IMG/VR virus record: IMGVR_UViG_3300010412_000110
Span: 1-29,569 of that record
Length of the DNA stretch: 29,569 nt
Source of the DNA: a virus
Lineage: Duplodnaviria; Caudoviricetes
Reading direction: 5' to 3' (one strand)
The notes under the pieces were generated by a model. The model worked only from the letters and a program-made list of their open reading frames with translations. It did no database searches and was not told the DNA's origin. Of this stretch, positions 2,899 to 19,928 are shown in pieces; positions within the stretch are counted from its first letter, which is position 1, and each line of letters begins with the position of its first letter. Both the position numbers and the translations under genes were made by a program.

Positions 2899-2902
2899 TT
2901 CT

Positions 2903-4252
2903 TTACCTAACGTTAGTCAATGGTGTTCCACTAGCAAGTGCACGACGAGTGGCTTCTGCCTCTAAGGCTTCTCTTTCTGTGTTATATGTTATTGGTGTAC
3001 CAAAAGTTGCAGCCGGGTCATAATTATAAGTGTTTCCGCCATCTGGTTGTGGAGTTACTGTAACATTTCCATAAAGTCTATACACAAACTTTCCATCACT
3101 GGTTTTTTCAAAAGTAGTTATTGTGTTGGTTTCTGGATTATAGAAACCAGTTTTTGTACCAGAATCTAACTTGGAAATTGTTTCACTACCACTAACTATA
3201 CGAGCCTGTTGTTCTTGAGTCAACGGTACTGATCCTACCCCTGTAAATAATCTTGTACCAATATTAATCAAATCGCCAGATTCTTTTAGAACACCTGCGG
3301 CGGCTACTACACCATTACTAATGATAGTACCCGCTATACCAAGTAAAGCGGTTCCTGCATTAAATTCACCATAAATCGCATTTGCTTGTGCCGCATATGC
3401 AGGGTCCCAATCGCGGCCTGTCACATACTCTATTTCTTTAAATGAGATTGTCAATTGGTATGAAATGGGAAGATTAGTTCCTTCAAAGAACGCAGGAGTA
3501 CCAAAAGGATTATACTTTACACTGACAGAATCCATGAAACATTTTTTGATTTTGATTATGCTATTTGGAGACCAATGGAACGCTCCTGTTCCACCAGAAT
3601 CCCAAGGAAAGAAATTCAATTGACACATATAAGGATAATTTAGTACAGTAGTATTGCTCCCCTTGTTAAATGTTGGAAGTGCTCTTGCCTTTAGTTTTAA
3701 TATCAAATTTGAAATGTCTTGAGACTCTTTAGCACTCTTAGGATAGAAAGACCAACTAAATACAAAGCTTCTCAATGATGGCCCCTGAAACATCACAGAT
3801 GGATTAGGGTTTGGTGCCATACCCATTTCTTGTTGAATGGCAGAGTTAATCTTCTCTGCTGGCATGATACTGCTTATCTGCTTTTGCATGAAATCACCGG
3901 CAGTACTACTACCACCGGGCATGGCAGTCGCTGCTGCACCACCAAAACCGCTTGCACCTGATTCTATAGCTGTGCCAGCTTTACGTAAGAGAAGTGTAGG
4001 ACCAGATTCAAGTGGATTGTTGATAAAATCGCCAACAGCTTCTAGATTGTTTTCTGAGTACTTTACTGTTGTATTATCCACCAATTGATCCGGTAATGGT
4101 AGATACACAACCAATCTTTCGTTTACTTCCATTTCTCTGAAAGGATTTGGTCTCTTATACTCACCTAAACGAATTCTAGTATAATATTTACCAATGGCTG
4201 AACCTGTTGGATTCGTCGCTCTTGATGGAGTGGTTTCGTAGATACTTGCCAT
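2903..4252 (-). CDS. gp48: Baseplate tail-tube cap gp48-like
   Basis: NPNPSVMFQGPSLRSFVFSWSFYPKSAKES motif and LTISFKEIE; start placed at MASIYET (4252). Confidence 0.85.
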   Translation of the reverse strand: MASIYETTPSRATNPTGSAIGKYYTRIRLGEYKRPNPFREMEVNERLVVYLPLPDQLVDNTTVKYSENNLEAVGDFINNPLESGPTLLLRKAGTAIESGASGFGGAAATAMPGGSSTAGDFMQKQISSIMPAEKINSAIQQEMGMAPNPNPSVMFQGPSLRSFVFSWSFYPKSAKESQDISNLILKLKARALPTFNKGSNTTVLNYPYMCQLNFFPWDSGGTGAFHWSPNSIIKIKKCFMDSVSVKYNPFGTPAFFEGTNLPISYQLTISFKEIEYVTGRDWDPAYAAQANAIYGEFNAGTALLGIAGTIISNGVVAAAGVLKESGDLINIGTRLFTGVGSVPLTQEQQARIVSGSETISKLDSGTKTGFYNPETNTITTFEKTSDGKFVYRLYGNVTVTPQPDGGNTYNYDPAATFGTPITYNTEREALEAEATRRALASGTPLTNVR

Positions 4253-14632: not shown

Positions 14633-16045
14633 TTAAAGAGTGTAGCGGTCAGACATTACTGCCTTACGCATTACTGCTTCTGGTGTTAGACCTTCTAGAT
14701 CAGCACCAAGTACCGCCTTCATGATCGCTGGTGAGAATCCAGAGACAAGAGCAACGCCCTTCTCATCGAACTTCACAGGAACATTATCGTAGGCATTGAT
14801 GTTCCAGAAGACTACAGCAGGAACTTCGTAACCGGCTTCCTCGTACTTACGGCGGATCATTTCAATCGCGCTGTTATCGAACTTGGTGCACTGGTTGAAC
14901 TGCATATCTGACATGATTAGGAGAACCTTAGGCATATCAGCAGGATCAACCTTGTTACGAACTGCTACCTTCAAGATTTCGTTGAAGGCACCGTGTAGGT
15001 TGGTTGACATTTCCCAATCAGCACGACGAAGCTGGTTAACCTTCTGGGAAAGGGTACCCTTCAAGTGCTGGAAGGTTGGGTTGGTTGAGAAGGTCAAGAA
15101 CAAATCCTTGAAGGGACCAGTGTTCTTGTCTGCACAATACAAACCAAGAGAAACGGCAACGTCTAGACAGGTAAGAGTAACACCCTTGCTGTTTGCTGAT
15201 CCTACACGAGCAGTCATAGAACCAGAAACGTCAACAAGTGGTAGAACCATGGCATCACCCATGAAGTTAGGCAGAGCCTTCCACTGTTCATCGGCAAGCT
15301 TGTTGTCACCATAATGTACGTTCTTCACGATATCATATGGGTAAACAGCACCTGCATTGACCTTAACAGAAGGATCACCCTTCTTCAATGCTTCCTTGTA
15401 CTTGGTGAATGCATCGGGAGCATTACGACCAAATGCCTTGGAATAACGAGACATAGCAAGTGAAGGAACATGGGAAAAGTTAATTTCATTCCAACACTTC
15501 GCACACATCTTGCTCTCTACAACGCCAGTAAGCTCGACAAGACGCTTACGATAGAACTTAGGAGACCAACCAAGGAACTCACGAAGCTCTACAGCCTTCT
15601 CGCCCTTACGAGGCATCCACTTAGCGCAAAGACCGTTTCCAGCCTCTAGAGCATCGCGGATAAGACCGAAAGCAATCTGCTTGACTTCGGCATCAGTAAA
15701 GATCAAAAGATCATCCCAACGACCAATTTCAGCAGTGTTCTTTAGAAGACGAGTTTCAATCAAGTCTTCCTTGTGGTTCTTTTCTAGGTAACGAAGTACC
15801 TGACGGAAAAGCTCACGCTCACCGGCACCGCCGCGAGCATCACGTGCCCACTGTGCGATACGAAGAGCCACATCACGATCTTCCTGATAGGCGCGTTCAA
15901 ACTGTGAGGTAATGTTCTTACCACGTGAAGCACCGATCTTGAAGAATAGATCAACGGTCTCGGAAAGAGTTGAACGGATAGCCTTCATACCATTGGTAGT
16001 GCGGGCCTTAACAGGAGTTGCGAGTACGGCATTCTTAAAAGACAT
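14633..16045 (-). CDS. Ro60/TROVE-related (DUF2828-type) helical protein with C-terminal vWA domain
   Basis: DLFFKIGASRG, ARDARGGAGERE, GRWDDL, AKWMPRKG; vWA MIDAS VDVSGSM, STNL, SDMQF, VVFWN. Confidence 0.85.
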   Translation of the reverse strand: MSFKNAVLATPVKARTTNGMKAIRSTLSETVDLFFKIGASRGKNITSQFERAYQEDRDVALRIAQWARDARGGAGERELFRQVLRYLEKNHKEDLIETRLLKNTAEIGRWDDLLIFTDAEVKQIAFGLIRDALEAGNGLCAKWMPRKGEKAVELREFLGWSPKFYRKRLVELTGVVESKMCAKCWNEINFSHVPSLAMSRYSKAFGRNAPDAFTKYKEALKKGDPSVKVNAGAVYPYDIVKNVHYGDNKLADEQWKALPNFMGDAMVLPLVDVSGSMTARVGSANSKGVTLTCLDVAVSLGLYCADKNTGPFKDLFLTFSTNPTFQHLKGTLSQKVNQLRRADWEMSTNLHGAFNEILKVAVRNKVDPADMPKVLLIMSDMQFNQCTKFDNSAIEMIRRKYEEAGYEVPAVVFWNINAYDNVPVKFDEKGVALVSGFSPAIMKAVLGADLEGLTPEAVMRKAVMSDRYTL

Positions 16046-16062
16046 ATTAATTCTCCATTATA

Positions 16063-16128
16063 TACAGGTTAACGTTTTTTGCGGTTTTGATTACAAGTCA
16101 AGTGCATTTAGATTGCTGAAATTAACCT
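16063..16128 (-). ncRNA. Y-RNA-like element A, carrying a tRNA-Thr(UGU)-type anticodon stem-loop
   Basis: AGGUUAA-UUU-CAGCAA...UUGA-CUUGUAA-UCAA...UUAACCU-GU. Confidence 0.7.
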
Positions 16129-16133
16129 TTAAT

Positions 16134-16233
16134 CAACAGGCAGGTTGTGTTTCCTTAACCATAACACACGAAGGAATCGAACCTTCTCGGACCTTTGTTT
16201 CAAAAAAGAAGTAAAGATTGCTGTAGTCTGCCT
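16134..16233 (-). ncRNA. Y-RNA-like element B, carrying a T-arm
   Basis: AGGCAG-ACUA-CAGCAA...GAAGG-UUCGAUU-CCUUC...CUGCCU-GUUG. Confidence 0.7.
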
Positions 16234-16243
16234 TAATTCGTAC

Positions 16244-16272
16244 ATGATATATCAACTGAACTAGCTTGTCAA
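16244..16272 (-). promoter_or_regulatory. Sigma70-like promoter driving elements B, A and the Ro-like gene
   Basis: TTGACA-N17-TATCAT, ending about 10 nt before element B. Confidence 0.7.
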
Positions 16273-16293
16273 GCATGATATGTCATGTTTTTT

Positions 16294-16424
16294 CTACGGG
16301 ATGCACTTTTTGCTGTCTATTGCTCTACCAAGCTGAGCTACCTCCCGATAAATGGCCGGGAGGGTTGGATTCGAACCAACGACCCATAGTTTCCATATAG
16401 CTTCAAGTTGCGGTAAGCATCCCT
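16294..16424 (-). ncRNA. YrlA-like element C: circularly permuted tRNA mimic
   Basis: GGGAUGC-UUA-CCGCAA...T arm GUUGG-UUCGAAU-CCAAC, CCUCCCG-GCCA-UUUAU-CGGGAGG closed acceptor, D arm GCUC-AGCUUGGUA-GAGC...GCAUCCC-GUAG. Confidence 0.85.
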
Positions 16425-16429
16425 AAACT

Positions 16430-16582
16430 TTATTCACTCTCAGAGTAATACTTTCTGAGAATATCATAATCAATAATTCCTTCACCACGAAGGAATGTAA
16501 CAATTTTTCGTGCATCAAACATATTCATGTTGCAATTGACAACTAGATCAATTGTAAACTCTTCAAAAACATCTTTGACCAT
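16430..16582 (-). CDS. Small hypothetical protein (50 aa)
   Basis: Not in ORF track. MVKDVFEEFTIDLVVNCNMNMFDARKIVTFLRGEGIIDYDILRKYYSESE with AAGGA RBS. Confidence 0.65.
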   Translation of the reverse strand: MVKDVFEEFTIDLVVNCNMNMFDARKIVTFLRGEGIIDYDILRKYYSESE

Positions 16583-16598
16583 TATCAATCCTTTAATT

Positions 16599-16856
16599 CA
16601 ACGGGCTGTACATTTCTACGCGCTCTACCAGTTGAGCTACGCCCCCATCATAATCCATTACGTCAGGTATGTCAACAGCTTATTGACACCTTATCGCTAA
16701 CCGGTATGTACCGTTATGGCCACTTACGAATAGACCAGAAAGCCACCGTACCCTACTTAAGGGTCAAAGAGGTAATGGATTGTGGTGGGGGCGGCGGGAC
16801 TCGAACACCGCAACCTCGTCCTTATGATGGAATGAAATACATGCTGTAGACAGCCC
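16599..16856 (-). ncRNA. YrlA-like element D: permuted tRNA mimic with a 136-nt insert after CCA
   Basis: GGGCUGU-CUA-CAGCAU...T arm, CGCCCCC-ACCA, insert, GGGGGCG-UA-GCUC-AACUGGUA-GAGC...ACAGCCC-GUUG. Confidence 0.8.
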
Positions 16857-16862
16857 AAAACT

Positions 16863-17090
16863 TTATTGACTATCGATAAACTCAATAATCATATTCTGCC
16901 AGTCCATAACATCAAATGCATCTGGACCGAACTGTGCATTATAACTCAATTCAACATCTTTTGTAAAGAGTGTTTCATCATTTTCTTTAATTGTTAGAAC
17001 GCCAGTATAATCACCTGTACGCATCACTGTACAGTCATACTTATCGTCTAACATGGCATTCCAAACACATTGTGACATAATGTTCTCCAT
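16863..17090 (-). CDS. Hypothetical protein
   Basis: 75 aa ORF between elements E and D; true start probably MSQ after GGAG. Confidence 0.7.
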   Translation of the reverse strand: MENIMSQCVWNAMLDDKYDCTVMRTGDYTGVLTIKENDETLFTKDVELSYNAQFGPDAFDVMDWQNMIIEFIDSQ

Positions 17091-17094
17091 GATT

Positions 17095-17195
17095 CAACAG
17101 GATCGTTGGTTTGTAGAGGGAATCGAACCCCCAAGGTTTGTTTTGCAGACAAATTGCCATCCATTGGCGTACTATTTGGTTGCTGAACCGATCCT
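17095..17195 (-). ncRNA. Y-RNA-like element E: D, anticodon (GCA, Cys) and T arms without a CCA acceptor end
   Basis: AGGAUCG-GUU-CAGCAA...GCC-AAUGGAU-GGC, UUUGU-CUGCAAA-ACAAA, GGGGG-UUCGAUU-CCCUC...CGAUCCU-GUUG. Confidence 0.8.
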
Positions 17196-17200
17196 AAAAC

Positions 17201-17467
17201 TTATTTCAGATTAGCAGCTTCGATTCTAGGATCACGTTTGTATCCACGTTTCTTAGCTACTTCCGAAGCTCTTTCATTCTGCTTAACCATTTCTTCACGG
17301 ATAAGCTTTAGTTCTTCTTCTGTATAATATCGGAGAGTGACCATATAATTAGTGTTTGATACACCCTCCGATATTGGTTCAAAAGAGACTAACTTGGCAG
17401 TATCACCAAAGTAATCAAAGATAATTTTCTTGAAATCGTCTTTGGTCAATTCTGTATATACTGCCAT
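17201..17467 (-). CDS. Small protein whose N-terminus resembles type II homoserine kinase (ThrB/APH family)
   Basis: MAVYTELTKDDF...LVSFEPISEGVSNTNYMVT matches the ThrB-II start; catalytic core absent. Confidence 0.6.
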   Translation of the reverse strand: MAVYTELTKDDFKKIIFDYFGDTAKLVSFEPISEGVSNTNYMVTLRYYTEEELKLIREEMVKQNERASEVAKKRGYKRDPRIEAANLK

Positions 17468-17473
17468 TATATA

Positions 17474-17857
17474 TTACTTTCTACCAATTGTCAAGAGGTT
17501 AAATGCGTCCAACGGACCTTTTTTATCCTCTGCAATTGGGTATACTGCAATGGAAGTATGTTCACCACCATTAAGATCAGGCTCGAAAAATGCTTCATAC
17601 GCAAAACCAAACTTATTCAAAATAAGTTCAACTGCATTAAGAGCAGTCAGATTGCGTACACCAACCACAGTGAAATAAGTTTCGCGTGGATCGATTTGCA
17701 TACCGTGAAGTTGTGGTGGAGATACTATCCCATCACCTTCATACGGCGTCCCATGTTGGGAAAACACACCAAGTTGAAATGCAGCATGTGCAGTCTGAAC
17801 TACTTGATATTCAGGAGAGATATCCTGTCGTGTGAAAAAATAAGCATAATGTCTCAT
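17474..17857 (-). CDS. Peptidyl-tRNA hydrolase Pth2-like protein
   Basis: YFFTRQDI...VQTAHAA...TVVGV...FFEPDLNGGEHTSIAVYP pattern. Confidence 0.7.
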   Translation of the reverse strand: MRHYAYFFTRQDISPEYQVVQTAHAAFQLGVFSQHGTPYEGDGIVSPPQLHGMQIDPRETYFTVVGVRNLTALNAVELILNKFGFAYEAFFEPDLNGGEHTSIAVYPIAEDKKGPLDAFNLLTIGRK

Positions 17858-17858
17858 A

Positions 17859-18242
17859 TCAAAGATTCCTTACAAAGTCTTTATCAATCATAGCGGCAAG
17901 TTCACGGAATGTCAATAGCTCTTCATCCGTCAAAATTTCCATTACATCGACACCAAGGACAAATCCATTAGTCACTTTCCATTCACCATCAATCCACTTT
18001 CTACCACCACGAAGTTGATGGCTGAATCCATACATCGCATTGGTGATAGCCTGATAAGGATACTGCCTATGAGCACAGACCTTACCAGCGGTAAATGATT
18101 TTTTGAGAAAATGTTTGAGTATTGTTACCTTGTCTTCCGACTTGGCTTTGACAGTGCGATAGATGCATAGTGCAACCATATCTGCACAGGTTAGAGTCTT
18201 TGAGTGGGCCTTAGCCTTGAATGTTTCAATAAAATTAGTCAT
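17859..18242 (-). CDS. Hypothetical protein
   Basis: 127 aa from MTNFIETF with AAGGA RBS; directly upstream of the Pth2-like gene. Confidence 0.7.
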   Translation of the reverse strand: MTNFIETFKAKAHSKTLTCADMVALCIYRTVKAKSEDKVTILKHFLKKSFTAGKVCAHRQYPYQAITNAMYGFSHQLRGGRKWIDGEWKVTNGFVLGVDVMEILTDEELLTFRELAAMIDKDFVRNL

Positions 18243-18291
18243 AATAGGTTCCTTTAAATTACAGTTGAGTTTATTTGTGTTCAACTATAAT

Positions 18292-18345
18292 TTACGGTGG
18301 ACCTATTGCGTGATACGGCTAGCCGCCATGTCCTTCATTCGTCAT
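18292..18345 (-). promoter_or_regulatory. Putative leader peptide ORF with internal amber codon: MTNEGHGG(UAG)PYHAIGPP(UAA)
   Basis: AAGGAA RBS, ATG at 18345, TAG at 18321-18319, TAA at 18294-18292, followed by hairpin 18257-18292 just before the next RBS. Confidence 0.65.
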
Positions 18346-18364
18346 ATTATTGTTCCTTTTTTAA

Positions 18365-18679
18365 TTAGACAAAAAAGTGATGCACATCTTTCTTCGGATC
18401 ATACATCATATGTACATTATTATCTCTGTCGTGCAAATAAACAGTATCTTTAGATTTATGAATCTTATCTAGGTGACTCGGAATATCAACATGCTTGTTA
18501 AACTCCGATTTATTAATTTTCTTAGAATTTTCTTCACCTTGAGCAAAATCGGTTGTGTCTCTATATGGAAGATGGTGTACAACACACTCGCCATCATCAT
18601 CAAAAGAATTGACACAGTTTCCGACATATACTTTTTTACTTTGGCTTGATTCGTTCAAAAATGTTGTTAATGTTTTCAT
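18365..18679 (-). CDS. Putative internal head protein (capsid-targeting N-terminus)
   Basis: Starts MKTLTTFLNE; late promoter TATAAATA at 18712-18719 (-). Confidence 0.7.
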   Translation of the reverse strand: MKTLTTFLNESSQSKKVYVGNCVNSFDDDGECVVHHLPYRDTTDFAQGEENSKKINKSEFNKHVDIPSHLDKIHKSKDTVYLHDRDNNVHMMYDPKKDVHHFFV

Positions 18680-18728
18680 TAACATACCCTTTATTACTAC
18701 ACGACATATACTATTTATACATGAAACT

Positions 18729-18807
18729 TGGTGCCCTCTGTGGGACTCGAACCCACGCATGACAAATATTTAGAGTATTCCGCTCTAACCAACTGAGCTA
18801 AGAGAGC
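18729..18807 (-). tRNA. tRNA with anticodon CUA (amber suppressor)
   Basis: Full cloverleaf GCUCUCU...GAAUA-CUCUAAA-UAUUU...GUGGG-UUCGAGU-CCCAC-AGAGGGC-A-CCA. Confidence 0.85.
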
Positions 18808-18812
18808 ATATT

Positions 18813-18952
18813 CTACGGGATGGCGGTTCTTGATTTCGGGAACCTAATAAGACCTCTTCTATTGTTTCGGGTTGTGTCCCTATTCTAGTTTCACCTAGAC
18901 TTTGCTCTAAGAGTATCCGAAGATACGAGATATTGTGGCTGTAATCATCCCT
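18813..18952 (-). ncRNA. Y-RNA-like element F with multi-hairpin, non-tRNA cargo
   Basis: GGGAUG-AUUA-CAGCCA...GUAUC-UUCG-GAUAC, UCUAG-GUGAAA-CUAGA...CAUCCC-GUAG. Confidence 0.65.
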
Positions 18953-18955
18953 TTT

Positions 18956-18963
18956 TATAAATA
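18956..18963 (+). promoter_or_regulatory. T4-type late promoter for the endonuclease
   Basis: TATAAATA followed by a GTGATT...AATCAC hairpin before ATG 19004. Confidence 0.7.
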
Positions 18964-19003
18964 GATGTGATTCGCGGAATTGCCGTTCCCAATCACTCTA
19001 ATA

Positions 19004-19507
19004 ATGTCAACCGTTTATTTATACGTAAAACAGCATTCAATTACCGGACTCAAATATTTCGGTAAAACCATCAAAGACCCATACATATATAAAGGGTCTG
19101 GCAAATATTGGTTAAAGCACATTTCTAAACATGGTAGAGATAAAGTCGTAACTCTTCAAGTATGGAAATTTTCTAATCTAGAAGAAGCTACAGAATTTGC
19201 TCTAAAATTTTCATTAGATAATAACATTGTAGAATCTAATGAATGGGCTAATCTTATGTTAGAGAATGGTATAAATGGCGGGGCTGTAGAAAACAATTAT
19301 TTTAAAATTTTTAATAAATTACCAAGAACAAAATCTCATGGTTCAAATATTTCTAAATCTAAAAAAGGAAAAGCAACCAAAAAATATCCTGTAATGGTGA
19401 ATAATATTGTTTATGAATCGTATGCAGAAGCATCTAGAATTATTGGTGTGTCCGATCAAACCATTATTAATTGGACAAAATCTGGCAAAGCAGTTTCACT
19501 TCGTTAA
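19004..19507 (+). mobile_element. Free-standing GIY-YIG (Seg-like) homing endonuclease
   Basis: VYLYVKQHSITGLKYFGKT..DP..YKGSG..W; C-terminal NUMOD/HTH-like YESYAEASRIIGVS; opposite orientation to neighbours. Confidence 0.85.
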
Positions 19508-19509
19508 AC

Positions 19510-19560
19510 TTAGATGAACACACTCACGCTTTGTAAGCCATTTGAATATGTTCATCTAAG
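19510..19560. terminator. Inverted repeat between the convergent endonuclease and tmRNA
   Basis: CTTAGATGAACA...TGTTCATCTAAG, perfect 12-bp stem. Confidence 0.5.
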
Positions 19561-19890
19561 TGGTGGGTTTCTGTTACGAGGTACCCACCGAACCCTTACA
19601 GATCATGCAGCTAAGCGCATATCCATAATGTCGTTATCATTTGCAGCGACATTTAGTTTTTGTGGGCACTTTACCCAAGCAATCAGTCTCGGACTTCCTA
19701 TTCCACGAAAATCGAATCCCAAGGTCACCCCCATCATCTACTAACTTGAAACGCCGTGCATTACAAGTGTAAGTTACCCCTTTCGGGTGTCCTTGAACAG
19801 TAGGCATCGAACCTACCAAGTTAGTAGATGGTGGAGGTGGGGGGAGTCGAACCCCCGTCTTTCCGCCTTTATTGTTGCCTGTCAACAACT
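19561..19890 (-). ncRNA. ssrA: Two-piece (circularly permuted) tmRNA, tag ANDNDIMDMRLAA
   Basis: Acceptor piece ends GGGGG-UUCGACU-CCCCC-CACCUCC-ACCA (19829); coding piece starts GGGGGUG (19732), giving G3:U70; tag ORF 19644-19603. Confidence 0.93.
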
Positions 19891-19899
19891 GATAATCTA

Positions 19900-19928
19900 T
19901 ATATACGACATTGTGATTCGATTGTCAA
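19900..19928 (-). promoter_or_regulatory. Sigma70-like promoter of tmRNA
   Basis: TTGACA-N17-TATATA. Confidence 0.7.

Follow-up and report, generated by a model that had tools for sequence, protein, structure and literature searches.

Why do phages that read the standard genetic code encode suppressor tRNAs? The question is raised here by a 29,569-nucleotide piece of a T4-like phage (IMG/VR record IMGVR_UViG_3300010412_000110), which is the whole stretch of DNA analysed and is referred to below as the window (29.6 kb). The window carries gp32, gp59, baseplate and tail genes. ARAGORN reports eight genes in it, including a CUA-anticodon tRNA and a permuted tmRNA. The CUA tRNA is followed, on the minus strand, by a short leader with an in-frame amber codon, by a gene called gene A in this study, and by a gene for a Pth2-like protein. 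In this study, the amber codon was considered as a gate that the suppressor tRNA would open.

The locus and its genetic code

The first-pass annotation had described a leader with a ribosome-binding site (RBS), an ATG, an in-frame TAG and a Gly-Pro-Pro-TAA end, and a CUA-anticodon tRNA upstream of it. Both are present on the minus strand (Table 1). From the ATG at 18345, the leader runs through eight sense codons, the TAG and eight further codons with Gly-Pro-Pro at their end, to the TAA at 18294-18292. ARAGORN labels the tRNA "Pyl", a label that reflects the anticodon only. A tRNA-Pyl identity was rejected: the sequence aligns as an ordinary tRNA with canonical D and T loops. No pylS or pylBCD gene was found among the 32 proteins scanned in the window, a contig of only 29.6 kb.

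Table 1. Positions of the leader, its tRNA, the gated genes and neighbouring elements in the window
Feature	Position	Strand	Remarks
Amber suppressor tRNA, CUA anticodon	18729..18807	-	ARAGORN; 59 bits; CCA encoded; short variable arm
Leader RBS, purine-rich	18353..18358	-	Purine-rich site also 5' of the start in relatives
Leader ORF	18292..18345	-	17 codons and TAA with readthrough; 8 codons if the amber terminates
Gate codon TAG (codon 9)	18319..18321	-	Kept in 18/22 loci; with a UCA or UUA tRNA, TGA or TAA instead
Gly-Pro-Pro codons, predicted pause or arrest site	18295..18303	-	First two bases of each codon invariant in 11/11 rows
Anti-RBS strand, outer helix	18299..18307	-	Pairs with 18252-18243 (predicted)
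Inner stem	18255..18294	-	14 pairs, AU-rich, 12-nt loop; variable sequence whose pairing is maintained by compensatory changes
Gene A, first gated gene	17859..18242	-	127 aa, helical for the most part; no match to a known family or fold
Sigma-70-like promoter site inside the end of gene A	17887..17915	-	11/12
Pth2-like gene	17474..17857	-	127 aa; starts 1 nt past the gene A stop; own RBS
Promoter-like sites between the Pth2-like gene and Ro	17494-17466, 16675-16647, 16272-16244	-	12/12 for the first, 11/12 for each of the others
Y-RNA-like element	16315..16388	-	RF02553, 41.2 bits, below the cut-off of 69; E 4.9e-6; ungated
Ro/TROVE-like RNA-binding protein	14633..16045	-	Matches DUF7788, DUF2828 and phrog_850; own promoter-like site upstream
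Permuted two-piece tmRNA (ribosome rescue)	19512..19924	-	RF04321, 76.7 bits, cut-off 47; ungated

The genetic code of the window was examined by stop codon usage and ORF density. Under table 11, 33 ORFs (8144 codons) are open; the stop is TAA in 23 and TGA in 10 of them, and TAG ends none. ORF density was 0.87 with the standard code, 0.91 with amber as sense, and 0.93 in the control with opal as sense. Whole-genome amber recoding (code 15) was excluded; the gain in density from reading TAG as sense does not exceed that of the TGA control. The window code is standard, the gate is a single codon, and the other window genes lack TAG. A sequencing error is an unlikely source of the TAG, because the leader letters are identical in contigs of two public runs (X1, piece 17266-19514; X13, piece 18274-19514), of which X1 is a possible source of the window and hence perhaps the same material.

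Other differences from public contigs were seen nearby. At 19002, the start of a homing-endonuclease-like ORF, contigs of three runs hold 22 additional bases, and the window may have a small deletion or an assembly slip there. A contig of run X15 joins 18349 to 18769 across 184 different bases. The ORF at 18365-18760, between the tRNA and the leader, occurs among 89 loci only in the window and its identical twin. Further away, three tandem genes with an ADP-ribosyltransferase domain (PF03496; 20980-23701, plus strand) lie on the strand opposite to their neighbours; they resemble T4 Alt/Mod.

Gene A has no match in GenBank phages, Pfam or PHROGs, and Foldseek returned none from the PDB at E 0.001. 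Its fold is predicted with a pLDDT of 90.7; the best Atlas match (0.87) is unnamed. Gene A and the Pth2-like gene are fused in L073-L080, and apparently also in many proteins of 210-250 residues. In other loci (L088, L089, L566, L005, L335, L342, and L370), the partner of the Pth2-like domain varies: either a domain that we take to be HD-like is fused on one or the other side of it, or another small helical protein replaces gene A.

The catalytic residues of Pth2 are Lys, Asp, and Thr, together with a conserved His. Alone, the Pth2-like protein of the window matches no Pfam or NCBIfam family. Its relatives L006, L007, P0274, and P0334 score above the curated cut-off of PF01981 (PTH2), and a profile of the 46-sequence family matches four solved Pth2-type chains (best E 5.4e-6). 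His24 and Thr101 are invariant in 46/46 sequences. In the window family, Gln stands at the Lys position of the Pth2 motif, and the Asp position aligns with Glu-Pro-Asp. An article on human PTRHD1 contained no information on activity. The product is a putative peptidyl-tRNA hydrolase.

The leader had been proposed to switch on a Pth2/Y-RNA/Ro operon. The part of this claim that stands is the cassette with the Pth2-like gene. The Y-RNA-like element and the 14633..16045 protein, which we take to be Ro, have promoter-like sites of their own and are therefore regarded as neighbours, not targets; Ro-like genes lie near 30 of the 89 relative loci. Since masking of an RBS acts on the first gene, control by the leader would be limited to gene A and to genes that are coupled to it or fused with it. 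From the site at 17915-17887, the Pth2-like gene could be expressed independently of the gate; in nine close relatives, this site reaches 7-10 of 12, and it is weak or absent in most. Single sites of this kind are only suggestive, because 13 were found against 9.7 expected.

Several side observations concern the same region. Around the Y-RNA-like match (16100-17200, minus strand), there are several tRNA-like or structured elements with a promoter-like site per block: a weak tRNA match (17112-17172), a relaxed ARAGORN call (near 16350-16440), and other T-loop-like stretches. The ungated stand-alone Pth2-like genes of L036, L037, and L046 are preceded by a strong promoter-like site that ends immediately ahead of the start codon, as for a leaderless mRNA. 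The tmRNA is present in many relative loci, and its permuted form suggests an alphaproteobacterial host.

Leader conservation and predicted RNA fold

Close-relative loci were retrieved with gene A, and 22 loci were examined, with L015, which starts inside the gene, excluded. A start codon, an in-frame TAG, and Gly-Pro-Pro were found in 18 of them, one of the 18 being identical to the window. The remaining loci are cut by contig ends (n = 3) or have no leader (L021). A CUA tRNA is seen in 15 of the 18 leader loci; in the other three, the upstream sequence is shorter than 300 nt. With the window included, the distinct leaders number 13. The part before the stop varies in sequence and in length, with 2 to 15 codons among close and distant relatives.

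A conserved upstream ORF ending in Gly-Pro-Pro and a stop had been expected ahead of gene A homologs. The start, the TAG, and Gly-Pro-Pro are conserved as described; the final stop is not part of the motif, since Pro-Pro is directly followed by a stop in just 6 of the 13 distinct leaders. Where this stop is missing, the frame continues without a fixed phase to gene A. Several relatives have a readthrough frame that terminates on the following start or is fused with it. Spacers of 2, 3, 4, 5, 6, 7, and 12 codons occur among close and distant loci with the frame kept throughout; in every gated locus read, the start and the motif or domain downstream share one frame. An alignment of 11 rows has the Gly codon and both Pro codons invariant at their first two bases, with variation at the third positions.

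Some leaders are arranged differently. Two amber codons stand in series in the leaders of L020 and L342. L007 combines an in-gene gate with another amber leader, located behind its Pth2-like gene. In L021 (near 2440-2500) and L062 (near 2900-3000), the 5' half of the tRNA is fused directly to the RBS or to the end of gene A. This junction removes the anticodon and the leader together, and is either a real deletion or an assembly artefact.

Folding of 18365-18236 gave -30.6 kcal/mol (z -4.3), and none of 200 shuffles was equally stable. The hairpin noted earlier behind the leader is found as an inner stem (18294-18281/18268-18255); an outer helix that covers the RBS had been overlooked. In the predicted fold, this outer helix (18307-18299/18252-18243) covers the RBS of the gene starting at 18242, and its leader strand consists of the Ile-Gly-Pro codons. 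The RBS of gene A is thus predicted to be masked by pairing with the leader. In single folds of 16 relatives, the RBS region is mostly paired, with z-scores from -4.4 to -0.1 (weak, above -1.5, in 4 of the 16). In the consensus fold, 9 of 19 pairs have changes on both sides, and the overall covariation term is about 0. The palindrome round the TAG, to which the first-pass annotation had given weight, is not conserved and forms no pairs in the consensus structure. The leader was also considered as a transcription terminator; this was rejected, as there is no terminator-like site at the leader.

The following mechanism is proposed. If translation terminated at the amber codon, with codon 8 (18324) in the P site, the RBS of gene A would stay paired. 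A ribosome reaches or unwinds RNA about 13 nt ahead of its P site; the outer helix starts 18 nt past the P site of a ribosome at the amber codon (geometry read by hand from unconstrained folds) and would therefore lie beyond its reach. If the CUA tRNA, presumably charged by a host synthetase, allowed readthrough, the ribosome would pause at Gly-Pro-Pro, the RBS would be freed, and gene A and the Pth2-like gene would be switched on. With the first Pro in the P site, a ribosome would extend over all of the anti-RBS strand and roughly half the inner stem, again by hand reading. The upstream ORF is so placed that, with a general value for the footprint length, a stalled ribosome is predicted to overlap the RBS-masking hairpin.

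The CC of the proline codons doubles as anti-RBS sequence, and an arrest peptide might not be needed. In that case, which we consider not very likely, Pro-Pro would serve mainly as anti-RBS sequence, and the readthrough ribosome would run or terminate on the anti-RBS strand or couple to the next start; this would be compatible with either trigger discussed below. The second Pro codon pairs with the GG of the RBS in 10-11 of the 11 rows, as this explanation would have it, and the readthrough frames that meet the next start also fit. Moreover, the amber leader of L392 has no Pro-Pro, and the in-gene form of the gate described below has no motif of the Pro-Pro type. However, the Gly and first Pro codons vary at third positions only. 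The first Pro codon keeps two positions invariant although it takes no part in pairing in the consensus fold; together with the spacers, which differ in length but hold the frame, this argues for selection on the motif at the peptide level. In L077, the Pro-Pro motif lies outside the RBS-pairing strand. In addition, distant leaders converge on RAPP, RGPP, and RGSP, for which the accessible text of PMC10987492 gives arrest activity in other peptides.

Gate stops and suppressor anticodons in other phages

A distant set of 54 viral loci was obtained with an alignment of the Pth2-like protein. Of these, 19 (17 amber and 2 opal) have a leader whose internal stop has Pro-Pro behind it in frame. By pattern scan, with some loci read by eye, no gate was found in the other 35, which are mostly stand-alone genes. 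Across the loci studied, stop and anticodon match for all three stops: TAG with CUA, TGA with UCA, and TAA with UUA. In the opal loci L079 and L080, which share one sequence, a UCA tRNA stands immediately before a TGA leader with a RAPP end. Lak-A1 and L477 have a UUA tRNA and a TAA leader holding RGSP. Lak-A1 has TAG recoded, with two CUA tRNAs elsewhere and the separate UUA tRNA before the TAA leader.

The leaders of the first sample had partly been found via Pro-Pro; hence, a second sample was chosen by tRNA. Pattern scans for suppressor tRNAs gave 86 (opal), 119 (amber), and 121 and 120 (ochre, two scans) loci. ARAGORN confirmed 32 UCA, 118 CUA, and 0 and 4 UUA tRNAs, the first ochre scan yielding 0 of 121. 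A Pth2-like gene lies within 2 kb of the suppressor tRNA in 4/32 opal, 10/118 amber, and 1/4 ochre loci. All 15 of these loci (13 distinct, one being the twin of the window) have the cognate stop as gate, either in a leader or in the first codons of the gene. At 136 of the 150 amber or opal tRNA loci, no Pth2-like gene is present within 2 kb; many such loci appear to be recoded, judging by their low density under the standard code. An automatic leader scan of 25 opal and 53 amber distinct tRNA loci returned two cognate leaders and one chance match. It missed several leaders later read by eye and is thus too strict for counting. L346 has a CUA tRNA followed by an amber leader with a RAPP end, with no Pth2-like gene detected within 2 kb; its gate may serve other genes. 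A scan of bacterial genomes with one protein, which is too weak for a statement on cellular range, gave one locus on a MAG contig, possibly phage, with an in-gene gate and a CUA tRNA.

The second architecture, the in-gene gate, was found in named phages. Fifteen GenBank records were picked for lineage spread from tblastn lists of 4, 35, 16, and 236 records. In 12 of the 15 records, TAG stands at codon 2-4, either in the Pth2-like gene or in its fusion: ME3, RsoM2USA, LR756500, I3, ScoobyDoobyDoo, pT24, Arash, CBB, XacN1 (a Pth2-like fusion gene, TAG at codon 3), RAS14, LR756511, and LR756501. All 12 encode a CUA tRNA. The tRNA and the gated gene can be far apart, as in XacN1 and RAS14. The ungated RaK2 and Hallingskeid have no suppressor among nine tRNA matches each, with one match each unassigned. 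An ungated Pth2-like gene together with a CUA tRNA occurs in the complete genome G001, which counts against a strict link. In the in-gene form, the same logic would apply directly, the gene product being made only if the tRNA overrides the stop.

The available text of the Atu_ph07 paper reports an opal suppressor with its target left open, and names two putative hydrolases (PMC6102473). The prediction that Atu_ph07 has a TGA gate held: an RBS, an ATG, and a TGA at codon 7 of a Pth2 gene were found at about 198-199 kb. A whole-genome profile search gave three Pth2-family genes (L618, L623, and L636) with weak scores (E 0.007-0.03) and motifs clear by eye. Only one of the three has an early stop; it is of the canonical type and retains the Lys and Asp motifs. 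In Kp24, for which an ochre-type tRNA is reported, no Pth2-like gene was found by searches that also missed the Atu_ph07 genes.

A GTG behind the stop could be used as an alternative start in I3, ScoobyDoobyDoo, L388, and L120, and translation of the leader is deduced from its sequence. The stops could thus be tolerated nonsense mutations, or an untranslated RNA element could have been misread as a leader. We regard such chance or decay as very improbable, because the stop keeps its position, frame, and identity in unrelated groups of phages and follows the anticodon where that differs, the prediction for Atu_ph07 was borne out, and the other window genes lack TAG. Judged by sequence comparison, the arrangement is real, conserved, and widespread across unrelated phages. 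The stop codon is very probably a tRNA-dependent gate.

What the gate may sense

At the gate, the suppressor tRNA would compete with the release factor, and a scarce release factor would give more readthrough. The gated product would remove the peptidyl-tRNA that accumulates when termination or rescue fails during infection. As a whole, we consider it rather probable that the tRNA probes release-factor availability and that the Pth2-family module clears peptidyl-tRNA when termination fails. The amber-recoded Lak phage gates on TAA with a separate UUA tRNA despite its CUA tRNAs; hence, only a codon with a working stop function can serve as the gate. This, the free choice of stop, and the kind of product all favour a probe of the release factor. 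The absence of TAG ends (0/33 window ORFs) was also counted for release-factor sensing.

The same avoidance of TAG ends fits another trigger. The tRNA could be made to disturb host termination, or made at a set time, and a real gate would then read suppressor-tRNA activity or the stage of infection, with the gated proteins limiting side effects or discharging the tRNA as feedback. The same comparative data fit this explanation; because the phage's own genes avoid TAG ends, suppression would hit host genes, and the distance between tRNA and gated gene in XacN1 and RAS14 is also in keeping with it. It is nevertheless fairly unlikely, as Lak, with its recoding CUA tRNAs, gates on TAA via the separate UUA tRNA, and the choice of stop varies freely between loci that look standard-code. 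It is improbable that the coupling is a selfish one or a safety lock, in which the proteins behind the gate would do harm, or would be of use only if the host charges the suppressor, and the stop checks host identity or co-infection. The gate and the tRNA were lost together in L021 and L062, as such a lock would predict, and the sensing of co-infecting recoded phages has been suggested for recoding in the accessible text of 10.1101/2021.08.26.457843. In contrast, every gated gene in the loci read belongs to the Pth2 family, which argues for a functional link with termination, and the neighbours are rescue and repair genes.

A wider form of the release-factor reading is put forward tentatively. 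Suppressor tRNAs of large phages may be dedicated release-factor probes, in which one private stop gates a Pth2-family rescue module, and this module, made up of gene A and the Pth2-like gene, may act as back-up peptide release against host defences that disable termination, with feedback like that of prfB. As part of this tentative reading, the design would have been rebuilt with three stop codons, two architectures, and two Pth2 subfamilies.

Competition with the release factor is the mechanism of prfB (RF2) autoregulation. As described in the available text of PMC12421855, an in-frame stop near the start of this termination-related gene needs to be bypassed. Similarly, an early in-frame stop lies here in the regulated reading path, in a leader or a Pth2-family gene. 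The bypass of prfB is, however, a programmed +1 frameshift without a dedicated tRNA, whereas bypass here would rely on a phage suppressor tRNA, with no frameshift; each of the three stops occurs as a gate, and the product belongs to the Pth2 family.

The accessible text of PMC10987492 defines the RAPP-like motif as (R/Q/H)-(A/G/D)-(P/G/S)-(P/G), and reports that RAPP-type peptides stall with the first Pro in the P site and that most RAPP-like sequences tested gave no stall. The leaders of L003, L018, L020, L056, L077, L079, L085, and L342 fall within this definition. The Ile-Gly-Pro-Pro of the window falls outside it, with Ile instead of Arg/Gln/His at the first position, and is not among the arrest motifs given in that text. 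Like SecM, ApdA, and ApdP (RQH family), as far as described in the available text of PMC10987492 and PMC12992588, the present system has a short upstream ORF, a motif ending in Pro-Pro, with RAPP, RGPP, and RGSP among relatives, and a hairpin at the RBS. Those peptides sense secretion or pulling forces via an N-terminal domain, whereas the peptide here has 5-30 residues and no such domain, and its motif is reached only through stop readthrough. With no frameshift, no sensor domain, and a motif without Arg/Gln/His, the window system lies outside the prfB and RAPP classes.

For Lak and crAss-like phages, suppressor tRNAs have been proposed to control which genes get translated (10.1101/2021.08.26.457843, available text). 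Many late genes are recoded there, in contrast to the standard code and single gated codon found here, and "peptidyl" has 0 occurrences in the main text of that article. In jumbo phages, PTH2 and ROT/TROVE have been noted and proposed for ribosome rescue (PMC7824862, available text); unlike here, no gating is described, and "suppressor" has 0 occurrences in the main text. In the literature covered (mostly open-access articles without supplements), no description of a suppressor-gated leader or Pth2 gene was found. Taken singly, the parts belong to known kinds; for a natural switch that relies on a dedicated suppressor tRNA, as the sequences suggest, we found no precedent.

The gate offers a testable answer to why phages with the standard code encode suppressor tRNAs. 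According to the available text of PMC5852040, the genes targeted by the amber suppressors of XacN1 could not be identified; the Pth2-like fusion gene is a candidate target for these, as is the Pth2 gene for the opal suppressor of Atu_ph07. The gate also accounts for missed or shortened gene calls in GenBank, and cultured phages, such as mycobacteriophage I3, open it to direct testing. If the proposal is true, it would represent a natural regulatory switch built on nonsense suppression, and termination would be an unrecognised front of the conflict between phage and host. It would also provide a selective reason for phages to gain suppressor tRNAs ahead of whole-genome recoding.
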